Below, one piece after another: positions 6,448 to 36,521 of a stretch of DNA of 64,000 nucleotides. The stretch's first letter is position 1; each line of letters starts with the position of its first letter. Source of the stretch: Escherichia phage MRostami-2023e. The DNA lies in sequence record OQ031495. One strand, written 5' to 3'. The translations under genes were made by a program, and so were the position numbers. The notes beneath the pieces were generated by a model. It did not search any database. It saw only the letters and a program-made list of their open reading frames with translations, and was not told where the DNA came from.

Positions 6448-6728
6448 CTTCACAAAACTGTTTACANNNNNNNNNNNNNNNNNNNNNNNNNNNNNNNNNN
6501 NNNNNNNNNNNNNNNNNNNNNNNNNNNNNNNNNNNNNNNNNNNNNNNNNNNNNNNNNNNNNNNNNNNNNNNNNNNNNNNNNNNNNNNNNNNNNNNNNNNN
6601 NNNNNNNNNNNNNNNNNNNNNNNNNNNNNNNNNNNNNNNNNNNNNNNNNNNNNNNNNNNNNNNNNNNNNNNNNNNNNNNNNNNNNNNNNNNNNNNNNNNN
6701 NNNNNNNNNNNNNNNNNNNNNNNNNNNN

Positions 6729-6760
6729 GTTTACACAATTATAGGACTATGTTATAGTAG
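6729..6760 (+). promoter_or_regulatory. T4-type early promoter candidate
   Basis: GTTTACA ... TGtTATAGT immediately after masked region; same palindrome as at 5165. Confidence 0.45.
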
Positions 6761-10777: not shown

Positions 10778-11381
10778 NNNNNNNNNNNNNNNNNNNNNNN
10801 NNNNNNNNNNNNNNNNNNNNNNNNNNNNNNNNNNNNNNNNNNNNNNNNNNNNNNNNNNNNNNNNNNNNNNNNNNNNNNNNNNNNNNNNNNNNNNNNNNNN
10901 NNNNNNNNNNNNNNNNNNNNNNNNNNNNNNNNNNNNNNNNNNNNNNNNNNNNNNNNNNNNNNNNNNNNNNNNNNNNNNNNNNNNNNNNNNNNNNNNNNNN
11001 NNNNNNNNNNNNNNNNNNNNNNNNNNNNNNNNNNNNNNNNNNNNNNNNNNNNNNNNNNNNNNNNNNNNNNNNNNNNNNNNNNNNNNNNNNNNNNNNNNNN
11101 NNNNNNNNNNNNNNNNNNNNNNNNNNNNNNNNNNNNNNNNNNNNNNNNNNNNNNNNNNNNNNNNNNNNNNNNNNNNNNNNNNNNNNNNNNNNNNNNNNNN
11201 NNNNNNNNNNNNNNNNNTATTTACATTCAAATAACATGGGAACAACCTGGACCTCATGATTCTATGAGGGATTCCCGCCAACCTGTAATAAGGTCGAGCC
11301 CAAGTGCGGTAATGGGTTTACATAGCGAGTCGAAGGACCTAACATGTGCCACGGAATGGCCCAAACCTTAAGAGAAATAAT

Positions 11382-13075: not shown

Positions 13076-13293
13076 TGGCTNNNNNNNNNNNNNNNNNNNN
13101 NNNNNNNNNNNNNNNNNNNNNNNNNNNNNNNNNNNNNNNNNNNNNNNNNNNNNNNNNNNNNNNNNNNNNNNNNNNNNNNNNNNNNNNNNNNNNNNNNNNN
13201 NNNNNNNNNNNNNNNNNNNNNNNNNNNNNNNNNNNNNNNNNNNNNNNNNNNNNNNNNNNNNNNNNNNNNNNNNNNNNNNNNNATCAAAGAGTA

Positions 13294-15154: not shown

Positions 15155-15578
15155 NNNNNNNNNNNNNNNNNNNNNNNNNNNNNNNNNNNNNNNNNNNNNN
15201 NNNNNNNNNNNNNNNNNNNNNNNNNNNNNNNNNNNNNNNNNNNNNNNNNNNNNNNNNNNNNNNNNNNNNNNNNNNNNNNNNNNNNNNNNNNNNNNNNNNN
15301 NNNNNNNNNNNNNNNNNNNNNNNNNNNNNNNNNNNNNNNNNNNNNNNNNNNNNNNNNNNNNNNNNNNNNNNNNNNNNNNNNNNNNNNNNNNNNNNNNNNN
15401 NNNNNNNNNNNNNNNNATGGACTGTTTTTTTTACTTTATGTAACGATGAAATGATATGTGATTTTGATTATTGGTGTTATTGCTATTGATACAATAAAGG
15501 ATGTACAAATCATACAGGTGAAGGTTTCTATTCCGGGTTTCAACCGTATCCAGACTTTGTNNNNNNNNGTGAACCTAA

Positions 15579-17288: not shown

Positions 17289-17669
17289 NNNNNNNNNNNN
17301 NNNNNNNNNNNNNNNNNNNNNNNNNNNNNNNNNNNNNNNNNNNNNNNNNNNNNNNNNNNNNNNNNNNNNNNNNNNNNNNNNNNNNNNNNNNNNNNNNNNN
17401 NNNNNNNNNNNNNNNNNNNNNNNNNNNNNNNNNNNNNNNNNNNNNNNNNNNNNNNNNNNNNNNNNNNNNNNNNNNNNNNNNNNNNNNNNNNNNNNNNNNN
17501 NNNNNNNNNNNNNNNNNNNNNNNNNNNNNNNNNNNNNNNNNNNNNNNNNNNNNNNNNNNNNNNNNNNNNNNNNNNNNNNNNNNNNNNNNNNNNNNNNNNN
17601 NNNNNNNNNNNNNNNNNNNNNNNNNNNNCAAGTTGAAGAACTTTATCGACATTTAAAACACAATCGGTA

Positions 17670-20046: not shown

Positions 20047-20325
20047 ATGAAAAAATTAGTAATTGGTTTATTCGCAGTAATGATGGCATTCTCTGTTGGT
20101 GCTACCACGGGTGCAGCCAGCGGTGCAGGAGCTGGTGGTAACCAGTCTTCTGGGCCTTCCAATGGTTCGGTAAATGCATCACATTCTCAAGGTATTGAGA
20201 ACATTAAATCAAGCTATATTAATAGCACGGCCGGACAAGCAACTGAAGCATGGTCAAAGGGTCGAGTAGTTACTCACTCCGTATTCTGTGATATGCCTAA
20301 TTATGTTGCTAAGTGCGATAAGTAA
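20047..20325 (+). CDS. secreted Gly/Ala/Ser-rich small protein
   Basis: Signal peptide MKKLVIGLFAVMMAFSVGA. Confidence 0.55.
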   Translation: MKKLVIGLFAVMMAFSVGATTGAASGAGAGGNQSSGPSNGSVNASHSQGIENIKSSYINSTAGQATEAWSKGRVVTHSVFCDMPNYVAKCDK

Positions 20326-23549: not shown

Positions 23550-24485
23550 ATGGCTTTTATTACACGTAAAGAACTTATCAAAGAATTTACCTCGAACGCA
23601 TATACTCCAGGACCTAATCCTATCCGTATGCCTGTAAAGACTCCTGAAGAGATTGAGGAAGTCTGTTCATATTATGGGATTACTTCTCGTAAGTTTACTC
23701 AATTTGAATGCGTTACTAACACACCCGTTAAAGAGTTCATTAAAAATGGTGAGTTCAGCCGTTTATTAGCCAAACAGAAACTTCGTAATTTTTGTATTGG
23801 CGGTGAAGGACAATATTTCGCTAAGCAGTTCCGGAATAACCTTAACAATCTGATGGCCATTGCTTCTCGTATTCGTCCTCAAGCAATTAACATGAAACAT
23901 TTGAAATATACTTACGATAAGTTGGAAATCATGGTTATCAGTGAGAATGAGTTCACTCTTACGTATAAACCTAAGAATGATAACGTTGCTCGTGTATTTC
24001 ACCAAGCGTTGGAAGTTTTAGGTGATAATATCCACCAGATTAAAGCAATTTATTCACGTGAGCTTAATATTATCAACCCCATCAAGAATAAGGGTCATAT
24101 TGCTATCCAGGCTCGTGTATCTATTGGTAAAAAGGTTCCTGCGCCATGGTGGCACAAAGACTCTGAATACTATCAAAATCTTAAAAAGGAAAATGCATTG
24201 TTTGAAGCATCGCTTACTGGAACCCCAATTGAACAGGCCGAAGTCCTAAGTGCTTATTCTACTTCTNNNNNNNNNNNNNNNNNNNNNNNNNNNAAACTAA
24301 AAGTTTCTAATGACCTTCTTCCGGCCGAAGATTACCATTACAATCAAATCAAGGCCACTATGGACCAACTGTCTGTTGAACTTGACAAAGCACAAGCTAA
24401 GCTTCGTGATGCTCAAAGTGTTGTAACGAATCTCCAGTTGCAGTATTCTAAACTTTTTAACGCAATGAATGCATTAAAATCATAA
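23550..24485 (+). CDS. hypothetical protein (311 aa) with C-terminal coiled coil; contains 27-nt masked stretch
   Basis: ORF; C-terminal heptad-rich tail. Confidence 0.55.
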   Translation: MAFITRKELIKEFTSNAYTPGPNPIRMPVKTPEEIEEVCSYYGITSRKFTQFECVTNTPVKEFIKNGEFSRLLAKQKLRNFCIGGEGQYFAKQFRNNLNNLMAIASRIRPQAINMKHLKYTYDKLEIMVISENEFTLTYKPKNDNVARVFHQALEVLGDNIHQIKAIYSRELNIINPIKNKGHIAIQARVSIGKKVPAPWWHKDSEYYQNLKKENALFEASLTGTPIEQAEVLSAYSTSXXXXXXXXXKLKVSNDLLPAEDYHYNQIKATMDQLSVELDKAQAKLRDAQSVVTNLQLQYSKLFNAMNALKS

Positions 24486-27125: not shown

Positions 27126-27539
27126 ATGAATATTTCTGAAACTCGCGGTAAATGGTTCAAGATTGTTAAAGAAGATGAAGAACTACAAGTCAAGTTTCCT
27201 GAATTAAAGAAAGATACGATCATCAAGGTAATTGGTACTACTACCGAAGATGGTTATGGCGACCATGGCATTATCGAAGTGATGTTGAACACAGGTGAGA
27301 AACTTTGCATCTATGACCGTGATACTTCTCTTTGGTGCTTCTGGGAATCCCATTCAATAGATGAACTCGAAGAAATTGACCAAGTAGTTTGTGATGGTGG
27401 ACTTGGCGAATTCGAAGGTGAACGTATTTCTTATGCTTTAGCTAAATTAGCCGGACAAGAAAATAACGACGGCTATGAAGGTAACCTGATGCAAGCAGCC
27501 GCAGAATACATTGAATATTTAGAAAGACGTTTAAGTTAA
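27126..27539 (+). CDS. hypothetical acidic protein (137 aa)
   Basis: ORF ending immediately before masked region. Confidence 0.5.
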   Translation: MNISETRGKWFKIVKEDEELQVKFPELKKDTIIKVIGTTTEDGYGDHGIIEVMLNTGEKLCIYDRDTSLWCFWESHSIDELEEIDQVVCDGGLGEFEGERISYALAKLAGQENNDGYEGNLMQAAAEYIEYLERRLS

Positions 27540-27738
27540 NNNNNNNNNNNNNNNNNNNNNNNNNNNNNNNNNNNNNNNNNNNNNNNNNNNNNNNNNNNNN
27601 NNNNNNNNNNNNNNNNNNNNNNNNNNNNNNNNNNNNNNNNNNNNNNNNNNNNNNNNNNNNNNNNNNNNNNNNNNNNNNNNNNNNNNNNNNNNNNNNNNNN
27701 NNNNNNNNNNNNNNNNNNNNNNNNTTAAGTTAATAAAT

Positions 27739-27768: not shown

Positions 27769-28242
27769 ATGTTATTATCAGGCGCAAAATATAAAGAAGA
27801 AAAACAAAAATTTTATGATGCACAGAACGGTAAGTGTCCTATTTGCCACCGTGAATTAGACCCTGATGTTCAAGGTAACCATCTTGACCACGACCATGAA
27901 TTAAACGGGCCAAAAGCCGGTAGAGTTCGTGGATTACTCTGTAATCTGTGCAACGCAGCAGAAGGTCAAATGAAGCATAAGTTCAACCGTTCTGGTCTTA
28001 AAGGCCGTGATGTCGACTACCTAGAATGGCTTGAAGCTCTTCTCGCTTATTTGAAACAAGATTATTCTGATAATAATATCCATCCTAATTTTGTTCCAGA
28101 CAAAACTAAAGAGTTCTCAAGACTAGGTAAAGAGGAAATGATGACCGAGATGCTTCAAAGAGGATTTGAATATAATGAATCAGATACTAAAACACAATTA
28201 ATAGCTTCATTCAAAAAGCAGCTTAGAAAGAGTTTAAAATGA
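27769..28242 (+). CDS. 49: endonuclease VII (Holliday-junction resolvase, gp49)
   Basis: KEEKQKFYDAQNGKC.IC.REL.PDVQ.NHLDHDHELNGPKAG.VRGLLCNLCNAAEG matches remembered T4 endo VII; 157 aa. Confidence 0.95.
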   Translation: MLLSGAKYKEEKQKFYDAQNGKCPICHRELDPDVQGNHLDHDHELNGPKAGRVRGLLCNLCNAAEGQMKHKFNRSGLKGRDVDYLEWLEALLAYLKQDYSDNNIHPNFVPDKTKEFSRLGKEEMMTEMLQRGFEYNESDTKTQLIASFKKQLRKSLK

Positions 28243-30056
28243 AAATTGAAAAAGAAATTGAAGGATTAATTCATAAAACTAATAAAGACCTTTTAAACGA
28301 GAATGCTAATAAAGATTCTCGTGTTTTTCCAACTCAACGGGACCTTATGGCTGGTATTGTGTCTAAGCACATTGCCAAAAATATGGTCCCGTCTTTTATT
28401 ATGAATGCGCATGAAAGCGGAATCATTCACATGCATGATATTGATTATTCTCCTGCTCTTCCATTTACTAATTGCTGTTTAGTCGATTTAAAGGGGATGC
28501 TTGAGAATGGATTTAAATTAGGCAATGCTCAAATTGAAACGCCTAAATCTATTGGCGTTGCTACTGCAATTATGGCACAAATTACCGCACAAGTTGCTTC
28601 ACACCAATATGGCGGAACTACATTTGCGAATGTCGATAAAGTTCTTTCTCCTTATGTTAAACGCACATACGCTAAACATATTGAGGACGCAGAAAAATGG
28701 CAAATCGCTGATGCGTTGAATTATGCCCAATCTAAAACAGAAAAAGACGTATACGATGCATTCCAAGCTTATGAATATGAAGTAAATACTCTCTTTAGTT
28801 CAAACGGACAGACTCCTTTTGTAACAATTACATTTGGTACAGGAACCGACTGGACTGAACGAATGATTCAGAAAGCAATTCTTAAAAACCGCATTAAAGG
28901 CCTTGGTCGTGATGGAATAACTCCTATTTTCCCTAAGCTTGTTATGTTCGTTGAAGAAGGTGTTAATCTTTATAAAGACGATCCGAACTATGATATTAAG
29001 CAGCTTGCTTTAGAATGTGCAAGCAAAAGAATGTATCCTGACATCATTTCGGCTAAGAACAATAAAGCTATCACCGGCTCATCTATTCCTGTTTCTCCAA
29101 TGGGTTGCCGTAGTTTCTTGAGCGTATGGAAAGATTCAACTGGCAATGAAATTCTTGATGGACGCAATAATCTTGGCGTTGTAACACTGAATCTTCCTCG
29201 TATTGCGTTAGATTCTTATATTGGAACACAATTCAATGAACAGAAATTTGCCGAATTGTTCAATGAACGAATGGACCTGTGTTTTGAAGCTTTGATGTGT
29301 AGAATTAGTTCCTTAAAAGGAGTTAAAGCGACTGTTGCTCCTATTCTTTACCAAGAAGGTGCATTTGGGGTTCGTCTTAAACCTGACGACGATATAATTG
29401 AGTTATTTAAAAACGGTAGAAGTTCAGTGTCTTTAGGATACATCGGTATTCATGAATTGAATATTCTTGTCGGCCGTGATATTGGACAAGAAATTTTAAC
29501 TAAAATGAATGCTCATCTTAAACAGTGGACTGAAAGAACCGGTTTTGCTTTTAGCTTGTATTCTACTCCTGCTGAAAACCTGTGCTATCGCTTCTGTAAA
29601 CTTGATACTGAAAAATATGGAAGTGTAAAAGATGTTACTGATAAAGGCTGGTACACTAACAGTTTCCATGTTTCAGTAGAAGAAAATATTACTCCGTTTG
29701 AAAAGATTTATCGCGAAGCCCCATATCATTTCATTTCGNNNNNNNNNNNNNNNNNNNNNNNNNNNNNNNNNNNNNNNNNNNNNNNNNNNNNNNNNNNNNN
29801 NNNNNNNNNNNNNNNNNNNNNNNNNNNNNNNNNNNNNNNNNNNNNNNNNNNNNNNNNNNNNNNNNNNNNNNNNNNNNNNNNNNNNNNNNNNNNNNNNNNN
29901 NNNNNNNNNNNATTTGTTTGTTCTATGTGTGGAGAAACTGATCCTAAAAAGATGAACACAATAAGAAGAACGTGTGGTTATCTTGGAAACCCGAACGAAC
30001 GCGGATTTAATCTAGGCAAAAATAAAGAAATCATGCATAGGGTTAAACACCAATGA
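28239..30056 (+). CDS. nrdD: anaerobic ribonucleoside-triphosphate reductase NrdD (glycyl-radical region masked)
   Basis: 605 aa as T4 NrdD; C-terminal Zn/Cys cluster CSMCGE...RRTCGYLG; continuous ORF, no intron. Confidence 0.9.
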   Translation: MKIEKEIEGLIHKTNKDLLNENANKDSRVFPTQRDLMAGIVSKHIAKNMVPSFIMNAHESGIIHMHDIDYSPALPFTNCCLVDLKGMLENGFKLGNAQIETPKSIGVATAIMAQITAQVASHQYGGTTFANVDKVLSPYVKRTYAKHIEDAEKWQIADALNYAQSKTEKDVYDAFQAYEYEVNTLFSSNGQTPFVTITFGTGTDWTERMIQKAILKNRIKGLGRDGITPIFPKLVMFVEEGVNLYKDDPNYDIKQLALECASKRMYPDIISAKNNKAITGSSIPVSPMGCRSFLSVWKDSTGNEILDGRNNLGVVTLNLPRIALDSYIGTQFNEQKFAELFNERMDLCFEALMCRISSLKGVKATVAPILYQEGAFGVRLKPDDDIIELFKNGRSSVSLGYIGIHELNILVGRDIGQEILTKMNAHLKQWTERTGFAFSLYSTPAENLCYRFCKLDTEKYGSVKDVTDKGWYTNSFHVSVEENITPFEKIYREAPYHFISXXXXXXXXXXXXXXXXXXXXXXXXXXXXXXXXXXXXXXXXXXXXXXXXXXXXXXXXXXFVCSMCGETDPKKMNTIRRTCGYLGNPNERGFNLGKNKEIMHRVKHQ

Positions 30057-30523
30057 ATTATGATAGAATTTATCCTTGTGATTTTGTGAATGGCCCTGGT
30101 TGCAGGGTCGTTCTTTTCGTTACAGGTTGTTTGCATAAATGTGAAGGGTGTTATAATAAATCAACATGGAATGCTAGAAATGGTATTCCATTCACTGGTG
30201 AAACACTAAAACAATTAATTGAAATTTTGAATAATGATTAAATAGAAGGATTAACTATAACTGGAGGAGACCCTCTCTATCCTGATAACCGAGATGTTAT
30301 TCATTGCATTGTTCAAACTATTAAAAATCTTTATCCCAATAAAAGCATTTGGTTGTGGACAGGATATAAGTTTGAAGATATTAAACAACTAGAAATGCTT
30401 AAATATGTTGATGTTATTATTGATGGGAAGTATGAGAAAAATCTTCCGACCAAAAAGATATGGCGAGGATCAGATAATCAGCGACTTTGGTCAAATACCG
30501 ATGGGGTGTGGAAACATGATTAA
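30053..30523 (+). CDS. nrdG: anaerobic RNR activase NrdG, interrupted by in-frame TAA at 30239-30241
   Basis: N-terminal radical-SAM CxxxCxxC (CLHKCEGC); C-terminal TGGDPL...WLWTGYKFEDIKQLEMLKYVDVIIDGKYE in the same frame after the stop; total 156 codons as in T4. Confidence 0.75.
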
Positions 30524-35501: not shown

Positions 35502-36521
35502 ATGAAAATTTTGCACTTAGGCGATTGGCATTTAGGTGTTAAAGCCGATGATGAGTGGGTTCAATCTATTCAGCTGGATGGAATTAAACAAGCAATAGAA
35601 TATTCTAAGAAAAACGGAATTACTGTATGGATTCAATACGGCGATATTTTTGATGTGCGAAAAGCAATCACACATAAAACTATGGAGTTCGCTCGTGAAA
35701 TAGTTCAAATGCTTGATGATGCTGGTATTACCCTACATACTGTTGTAGGAAACCATGATATGCACTTTAAAAATACTTTAACTCCAAATGCTTCTACTGA
35801 GCTTTTGGCTAAATATCCTAATGTTAAAGTATATGATAAGCCAACTACTGTAGATTTTGACGGATGTCTGATTGATATCGTTCCATGGATGTGTGAAGAA
35901 AATACAGGTGAAATCTTAGAGCACATCAAGACTTCTTCCGCAGCGTATTGTGTTGGTCACTGGGAACTGAATGGCTTTTATTTCTATAAAGGAATGAAGT
36001 CTCATGGGCTTGAACCTGATTTCTTAAAGACTTATAAACAAGTCTGGTCTGGCCACTTCCACACAATCTCTGAAGCTGCTAACGTCAAATATATTGGGAC
36101 ACCATGGACCCTTACTGCAGGTGATGAGAACGATCCGCGCGGATTCTGGGTATTTGACACTGATGTTGAACGTATGGAATTTATTCCTAATGAAACAACA
36201 TGGCATCGACGAATCACTTATCCGTTTAAAGGCAAAATTAATTATTCTGATTATACTAATCTAGCCGTACGTGTTATAGTATCAGAAATTGATTCAGAGT
36301 TGACTAAGTTTGAATCTGAACTTGAAAAAGTAGTTCACTCTCTTCGTATGGTTTCTAAAGTTGATAACAGTGTTGAATCTGATGACGACCAGGAAATCGA
36401 GATTAAATCACTTCAAGATATCATTAAAGAATATATTGACGCGATTCCAGATATCTCAGACGAAGACAGAGAAGCGCTGGTCAAATATTCCAACGAACTT
36501 TATATTGAGGCAACACAATGA
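35502..36521 (+). CDS. 47: recombination endonuclease subunit gp47 (Mre11-like)
   Basis: MKILHLGDWHLG phosphoesterase motif I, GNHD motif; 339 aa as T4 gp47. Confidence 0.9.
   Translation: MKILHLGDWHLGVKADDEWVQSIQLDGIKQAIEYSKKNGITVWIQYGDIFDVRKAITHKTMEFAREIVQMLDDAGITLHTVVGNHDMHFKNTLTPNASTELLAKYPNVKVYDKPTTVDFDGCLIDIVPWMCEENTGEILEHIKTSSAAYCVGHWELNGFYFYKGMKSHGLEPDFLKTYKQVWSGHFHTISEAANVKYIGTPWTLTAGDENDPRGFWVFDTDVERMEFIPNETTWHRRITYPFKGKINYSDYTNLAVRVIVSEIDSELTKFESELEKVVHSLRMVSKVDNSVESDDDQEIEIKSLQDIIKEYIDAIPDISDEDREALVKYSNELYIEATQ

Follow-up and report, generated by a model that had tools for sequence, protein, structure and literature searches.

The locus described here lies on the plus strand of a 64,000-nucleotide stretch of Escherichia phage MRostami-2023e (OQ031495), hereafter the window, and comprises nrdD (28239 to 30056), for the large subunit of the class III (anaerobic) ribonucleotide reductase, and nrdG (30053 to 30523), for its activase. 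The ATG of nrdG overlaps the stop codon of nrdD (ATGA, 30053 to 30056), an arrangement common to relatives of the phage. The pair is the ordinary nrdD-nrdG operon of a Mosigvirus, in which NrdG, as a radical-SAM activase, places the glycyl radical on NrdD, the reaction established for this protein (PMC4493059).

The nrdG gene and its in-frame stop codon

From the ATG at 30053 to the TAA at 30521 to 30523, nrdG spans 156 codons in a single frame, which reads as a 62-amino-acid part (MNYDRIY...EILNND), a TAA, a 93-amino-acid part (IEGLTITGGDPL...VWKHD) and the terminal stop. The one internal stop is an ochre codon at 30239 to 30241, codon 63 of the gene, and the letters around it are AAT AAT GAT TAA ATA GAA GGA TTA ACT ATA ACT GGA GGA GAC CCT. 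The N-terminal part, 62 codons plus this TAA (30053 to 30241), carries the CX3CX2C iron-sulfur cluster motif (CLHKCEGC, NrdG residues 26 to 33) and matches positions 1 to 60 of the 154 in the NCBIfam profile for NrdG, TIGR02491, at 80 bits. The C-terminal part, 93 codons plus the terminal TAA (30242 to 30523), carries the GGDPL S-adenosylmethionine-binding motif (TGGDPL, residues 70 to 75) and matches positions 64 to 153 of 154 at 108 bits. The stop thus sits between the two motifs, and each fragment as written scores under the curated TIGR02491 cutoff of 126.1 bits, whereas the same gene with Tyr at codon 63 scores 199.1 bits over profile positions 1 to 153. Alignment with the PFL-activating enzyme (3C8F) likewise takes in both motifs, with GGD(E) falling downstream of the stop. 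Since the two parts are collinear on the profile, no insertion, deletion or frameshift is involved; one sense codon has been swapped for a stop. Translation and profile collinearity therefore agree with a preliminary description of this DNA, which had placed the two parts in the same frame around a single TAA and had given the gene the length of its T4 counterpart, and indeed T4 NrdG has 156 amino acids (PMC4493059). The uninterrupted frame expected of a family member is broken, as written, by the TAA at 30239 to 30241, and nrdG as written is a disrupted member of the NrdG family: either a pseudogene or an intact gene recorded with an error.

The adjoining nrdD requires some caution. Its frame is open over 605 codons, the length of the product in relatives (605 amino acids, with the Pfam domains NRDD and Gly_radical), and the segments corresponding to residues 381 to 499 and 559 to 605 are about 99% identical to T4 NrdD (PDB 1H78). 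Between these segments, however, lies a run of 173 N (29739 to 29911, codons ~501 to 558). The run is length-matched to relatives, the alignment anchors that flank it being 176 nt apart both in the window and in phage moskry. The preliminary description had called nrdD intact; the open frame bears this out as far as it goes, but because of the 173-nt masked gap and three amino-acid changes unique to the window, intactness is not established.

Relatives of the phage and the incomplete sibling record

The window belongs to a Mosigvirus, that is, an RB69-like T-even phage, with moskry and JS09 matching at ~97.5%. Over nrdG and its flanks, the Mosigvirus and Tequatrovirus relatives (ECO26.1 3-1, moskry, JS09, T2 and others) are 94 to 98% identical to the window at the nucleotide level and share with it the gene order 49-nrdD-nrdG-55.8; where they differ is in having an uninterrupted 156-amino-acid NrdG with Tyr63, as do all relatives checked. 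The likeness to the product of T4 gene 55.9 covers the 156-codon length, the N-terminus MNYDRIYPCDFVNGPGCRVVLFVTGCLHKCEGCYN, the CX3CX2C and GGDPL motifs, and the placement of nrdG immediately downstream of nrdD with its start overlapping the nrdD stop; the differences in the window are the TAA in place of TAT at codon 63, together with K53, I58 and I136. T4 gene 55.9 (nrdG) was reportedly found by Young et al. in 1994 to be needed for anaerobic ribonucleotide reduction. T4 differs further in that mobC lies between its nrdG and nrdD, and in that its nrdD contains an intron (PMC2988022); the window phage has neither.

Escherichia phage vB_EQ1 (PQ516281.1) is ~100% identical to the window across more than 55 kb. 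The two differ only by a few indels of small-ORF cassettes, at places where the window has N-runs, by two patches, one in gene 47 (35525 to 35840, divergent) and one in nrdD (28680 to 29105, 20 sites), and by five isolated SNPs and an in-frame indel of 3 nt. Only two of the isolated differences, at 1835 and 24302, fall in the first 27.5 kb; both are non-synonymous, both are changes to A, and each lies no more than 10 nt from an N-run. At the locus that matters here, the vB_EQ1 record stops at window position 29344 and resumes at 30465, so that it lacks 1,120 nt (29345 to 30464), which take in the end of nrdD and almost the whole of nrdG. Therefore vB_EQ1 cannot arbitrate the TAA.

Three of the N-runs in the window are length-matched to phage moskry, and two of these are bordered by short direct repeats, an organization consistent with masked real cassettes. 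The idea that the N-runs are assembly gaps was upheld in part only, as at least some of them appear to be length-matched masks over real small-ORF cassettes.

Search for the TAA allele

The preliminary description had proposed that a Tyr codon would be expected at codon 63 and that related phages should be compared at this position. The comparison fully sustained the expectation: a T at 30241, giving TAT (Tyr), was found in 26/26 related loci read base by base (3 from GenBank phages, 6 from viral contigs, 7 from metagenome contigs and 10 from contigs reached through a protein-position index), and TAA in none. For a wider search, a 32-nt megablast query was used in which each possible 28-base seed spans codon 63. 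Among 50,697 phage records, the TAT version of this query matches 449, and the TAA version 0. Scanning viral, genome and metagenome contigs for the exact pattern recovered 13 contigs, each of them with TAT, and a search of E. coli genomes and plasmids for the TAA allele gave no match. At the protein level, residue 63 is Tyr without exception, both in 22 close full-length relatives and in a more distant set of 13 phage NrdGs reaching down to 59% identity; around this codon, the closest relative reads GATTATATAGAAGG and the window GATTAAATAGAAGG. An exact-protein look-up of the 62-amino-acid fragment returned no recorded gene product equal to it. These results accord with a 2013 survey of 128 phage genomes containing ribonucleotide reductase genes, among which none had an interrupted nrdG (PMC3653736).

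Some database entries look at first sight like exceptions. The "two activase pieces" annotated in VEc74 and pSe_SNUABM_01 resolve into an unbroken nrdG of 471 nt and a small ORF call that overlaps it, and the shorter, 130-amino-acid nrdG call in vB_Eco_F31 merely reflects another choice of start codon.

A cluster of base changes at the nrdD/nrdG junction

The stop does not stand alone. Nine base changes specific to the window (bases seen in none of 16 to 26 compared relatives), affecting 7 codons on the plus strand, lie between 29710 and 30460, and all of the codons are changed non-synonymously. By comparison with relatives, the changes in nrdD are S491Y, A500S and I563M, and those in nrdG are E53K, C/R58I (two adjacent bases), Y63stop (T-to-A at 30241) and L136I (two bases). 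Of the nrdD residues, S491 and I563 do not vary between T4 and any of the close relatives. The sole allele of the cluster found elsewhere is E53K, which occurs in phages Shfl2 and OES_C-3; the others were found neither in phage records nor in 2.9 million viral contigs. The contig scans covered four sites, and for two of them (codon 136 and nrdD I563M) a control with a degenerate pattern came out positive. The cluster straddles the nrdD N-run, and no member of it falls outside the stretch that vB_EQ1 lacks; the last change (30460) is only 5 nt from the point where that record resumes.

The character of these changes sets them apart from the natural variation of the same DNA. For the latter we took three SNPs near 59.8 kb, the nrdD patch that differs from vB_EQ1 and the lineage-specific sites outside the cluster, which together give 23 transitions and 6 transversions, and 27 synonymous changes against 3 conservative replacements. 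The cluster, with 2 transitions and 7 transversions, differs from this in spectrum (Fisher's exact test, p=0.003) and even more in its ratio of non-synonymous to synonymous changes (p=1e-5, same test). Gene 49 and nrdD as far as 29474 together hold 7 lineage-specific sites, all of them synonymous. With 7/7 codons non-synonymous, a functional allele under the purifying selection seen elsewhere is excluded. The same figure fits relaxed selection, but taken with the 2:7 ratio of transitions to transversions, the freedom from indels and the synonymous-only changes in upstream nrdD, the pattern fits random error as well as or better than relaxed selection.

Origin of the stop codon

Two of the causes offered in the preliminary description, a nonsense mutation and a sequencing error, are both plausible, with the balance leaning towards artifact. 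We infer that base-call or consensus error lies behind both the stop and the cluster, and we put the chance that the TAA base is a local sequence-quality artifact, and not biology, at somewhat better than even. If so, the ~9 window-specific differences in 750 nt around the N-run, within the 1,120 nt absent from vB_EQ1, would be noise resembling random substitution, and a random-substitution spectrum accommodates both the 2:7 ratio and the 7:0 ratio of non-synonymous to synonymous codons well. Moreover, the isolated differences at 1835 and 24302 are, like the cluster, non-synonymous and beside N-runs, and the window is identical to vB_EQ1 apart from a few patches. That the changes coincide with a stretch left unassembled in vB_EQ1 suggests that, in this lineage, the locus is heterogeneous or difficult to sequence, which again favors noise. 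On the other hand, tens of kb of the assembly match vB_EQ1 at 100% identity without a single frameshift, and given this accuracy a local error rate of ~1% would need a special cause; the cluster, moreover, consists of substitutions without indels, unlike typical long-read error. It also counts against an artifact that other phages carry E53K naturally, and that the three nrdG replacements (K53, I58 and I136) fall at columns variable among phage NrdGs, as real alleles would, although this is a weak test, with 61% of columns varying. Further, some of the N-runs seem to be length-matched masks over real cassettes and not assembly gaps, and nrdG, unneeded in aerobic growth, is a gene that could plausibly be lost.

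These objections give weight to the competing explanation, a genuine nonsense mutation or pseudogenization, to which we assign a sizeable probability, though one that falls short of even. As the sequence is written, a single T-to-A difference turns the invariant Tyr63 codon TAT into TAA, and translation would stop after 62 residues; the resulting fragment would keep the Fe-S cluster motif and lose the GGDPL SAM-binding motif along with the rest of the fold, so that the allele would presumably be null. The lineage would then have no functional activase, nrdG and the C-terminal segment of nrdD would be drifting without selection, and the phage would either lack anaerobic ribonucleotide reduction or rely on the NrdG of its host. 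Such a history is compatible with a window that is otherwise essentially error-free relative to vB_EQ1, with the 7/7 non-synonymous codons, as would arise without constraint, and with the density of unique changes, an estimated 1.3 to 1.7% of sites, near the neutral divergence implied by the synonymous-only singletons of neighboring genes. The loss would also be tolerable, since many phages have nrdD without nrdG (PMC3653736), and a class III enzyme, being active only without oxygen (PMC3653736, PMC4493059), is dispensable when phage are propagated in air. What speaks against a genuine null allele is, above all, the spectrum of the changes: 2:7 fits natural mutation poorly when the rest of the window shows 23:6. 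Moreover, the lineage-specific changes in the upstream 1.2 kb of nrdD are only synonymous, so nrdD as a whole is not decaying; no indels have accumulated; the unique alleles, E53K excepted, occur in no other isolate or contig searched; and interrupted nrdG genes numbered 0 in the 128 phage genomes surveyed in 2013 (PMC3653736). The excess of transversions, the evident constraint on upstream nrdD and the coincidence with the stretch missing from vB_EQ1 lead us to favor noise over a null allele.

Readings in which the gene remains functional fare much worse. The preliminary description had offered stop-codon suppression as a third cause, and this one found no support. In this reading, full-length NrdG would still be made, thanks to an ochre suppressor tRNA (encoded by the phage or its host) or to programmed near-cognate readthrough, an arrangement that might serve to keep activase levels low; we regard the reading as very improbable. 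Its appeal is that the stop replaces exactly one sense codon in an otherwise undisturbed frame, and that decoding by a near-cognate tRNA-Tyr could in principle bring back the native residue. A programmed signal, however, would be conserved, and the stop is conserved in 0 of more than 470 relatives. TAA is also the commonest terminator of this phage, ending 51 of 77 long plus-strand ORFs, nrdG itself included. As for a suppressor tRNA, ARAGORN found no tRNA in the window, Rfam found there only a truncated 3′ part of one at 1 to 54, and the tRNA cluster of vB_EQ1 holds tRNA-Arg(TCT) and tRNA-Met(CAT) only; the feature count of that record, 274, if read as 272 CDS and 2 tRNAs, implies that it has no further tRNAs. 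In E. coli, moreover, both release factors recognize UAA, and of the stop codons it is the least leaky. With the stop shared by no relative, TAA serving as an ordinary terminator, no suppressor tRNA in the window or in the vB_EQ1 cluster, and no usable restart downstream, programmed readthrough is unsupported. Nor do we give more than very slight credence to a real TAA through which a near-cognate tRNA-Tyr or a host ochre suppressor would let low levels of full-length NrdG be made; a milder version would have this Mosigvirus lineage give up its own activase and depend on host NrdG for activation of the phage NrdD.

Least probable of all, and close to negligible in our estimation, is that nrdG encodes a two-piece activase, its C-terminal part made by reinitiation and assembling with the N-terminal fragment, or is joined by a gene-60-type translational bypass. 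Purine-rich, Shine-Dalgarno-like strings (GAAGGA and GGAGGAG) do lie downstream of the stop, and T4 rIIB provides a known precedent for reinitiation after nonsense codons. The same strings, however, are plain coding sequence (E-G and T-G-G-D) in the intact relatives, and the first canonical in-frame start past the stop is the TTG at 30353, which would yield a 56-amino-acid piece without GGDPL. Moreover, there are no extra nucleotides at the junction, the two parts abutting at profile positions 60 and 64, and hence no inserted non-coding gap for a ribosome to hop over, and nrdG is split in no relative examined. Taken jointly, the readthrough, suppression, split-gene and bypass readings merit a very small share of the probability at most.

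Significance for the phage and for its annotation

Whichever of the two main causes applies, a familiar gene bears a lesion of an ordinary kind, and nothing points to a new mechanism. Should the stop be real, it would add another null allele to those of accessory genes and would be of little biological weight; the phage would then be predicted to be unable to use its own class III reductase and to suffer a growth defect without oxygen. Such an allele would resemble the classical ochre alleles and pseudogenes of accessory phage genes, in being a one-base premature stop in a gene unneeded for aerobic growth in the laboratory; it would differ from them in the unusual cluster of other unique substitutions around the stop and in showing no sign of deliberate isolation as a laboratory mutant. 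Were readthrough to operate after all, the anaerobic reductase of the phage would be activated only in particular hosts or conditions. For curation, the more utilitarian consequence is that 29345 to 30464, together with the matching gap in vB_EQ1, is best handled as low-confidence sequence, and nrdG in the window is best annotated as disrupted or possibly erroneous.

Mosaicism of the region

The nrdD/nrdG region of T-even phages is a target of homing endonucleases, among them mobC, I-TevII in the nrdD intron and the seg genes (PMC2988022). Gene conversion around homing-endonuclease sites explains the synonymous patch that distinguishes nrdD of the window from that of vB_EQ1, but it does not explain the nonsense codon. 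In three relatives, nrdD itself is split by a SegE-like GIY-YIG ORF.

Apparent masked cassettes and isolated substitutions

The window contains 10 runs of N (1799-1827, 6467-6728, 10778-11217, 13081-13282, 15155-15416, 15561-15568, 17289-17628, 24267-24293, 27540-27724, and 29739-29911). At the same places as most of these runs, the window differs in length from the near-identical sibling phage vB_EQ1, and 3 of the 10 are matched in length to the related phage moskry, with anchor-to-anchor distances of 32/32, 262/262, and 176/176 nt. These runs appear to mask small-ORF cassettes that are real and variable. Two of them are bounded by short direct repeats: GTTTACA stands on each side of 6467-6728 (6460-6735 with the repeats), and TTAAGTTAA on each side of 27540-27724 (27531-27733). 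The latter, 185 nt inserted between pin and gene 49, has no counterpart in vB_EQ1, ECO26.1 3-1, or moskry. GTTTACA resembles the -35 element of T4 early promoters, a likeness that suggests shuffling of cassettes bounded by promoters.

The first 27.5 kb of the window shows only 2 isolated differences from vB_EQ1, at 1835 and 24302, each lying 8-9 nt past an N-run. They change the encoded residue (Q to K, N to K), and in both the new base is an A that extends an A-run. There is also an in-frame 3-nt deletion relative to vB_EQ1 at 20123.

Probable allele replacement in nrdD and gene 47, and interruption of nrdD in relatives

Within nrdD (28239-30056), 20 differences from vB_EQ1 are packed into 425 nt (28680-29105); 17 are synonymous third-position changes and the other 3 are conservative (I/V, A/V). 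This patch is a gene-conversion signature, with another T-even phage as the donor. A 315-nt patch at 35525-35840 covers codons ~8-113 of the 339-aa gene 47/SbcD-like ORF (35502-36521). Compared with vB_EQ1, it carries ~100 differences together with several small indels, with identical surroundings on either side. The patch has the appearance of an allele segment that was replaced within the recombination nuclease gene.

In some relatives (e.g., OP870146.1 and KX130865.1), the nrdD call covers only a 443-aa C-terminal piece, with an ORF for a SegE-like GIY-YIG endonuclease ahead of it. That ORF is a mobile-element interruption of nrdD, from which the window phage, unlike these relatives, is free. 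The arrangement lies at positions 1-617 and 588/592-1923 of 3 loci of relatives (L023, L025, and L027).

The vB_EQ1 record and the start of the window

Although labelled a complete genome, the vB_EQ1 record (PQ516281.1) lacks a 1,120-nt stretch that takes in the 3′ third of nrdD and almost the whole of nrdG. Since its linear ends correspond to window positions 29344 and 30465, the exact borders of the missing stretch, the vB_EQ1 assembly broke there.

The window starts inside a tRNA gene, part of which occupies positions 1-54 (Rfam tRNA, model positions 19-71). This is the counterpart of tRNA-Arg(TCT) in vB_EQ1 and moskry, where the cluster consists of two tRNAs (Arg, Met).
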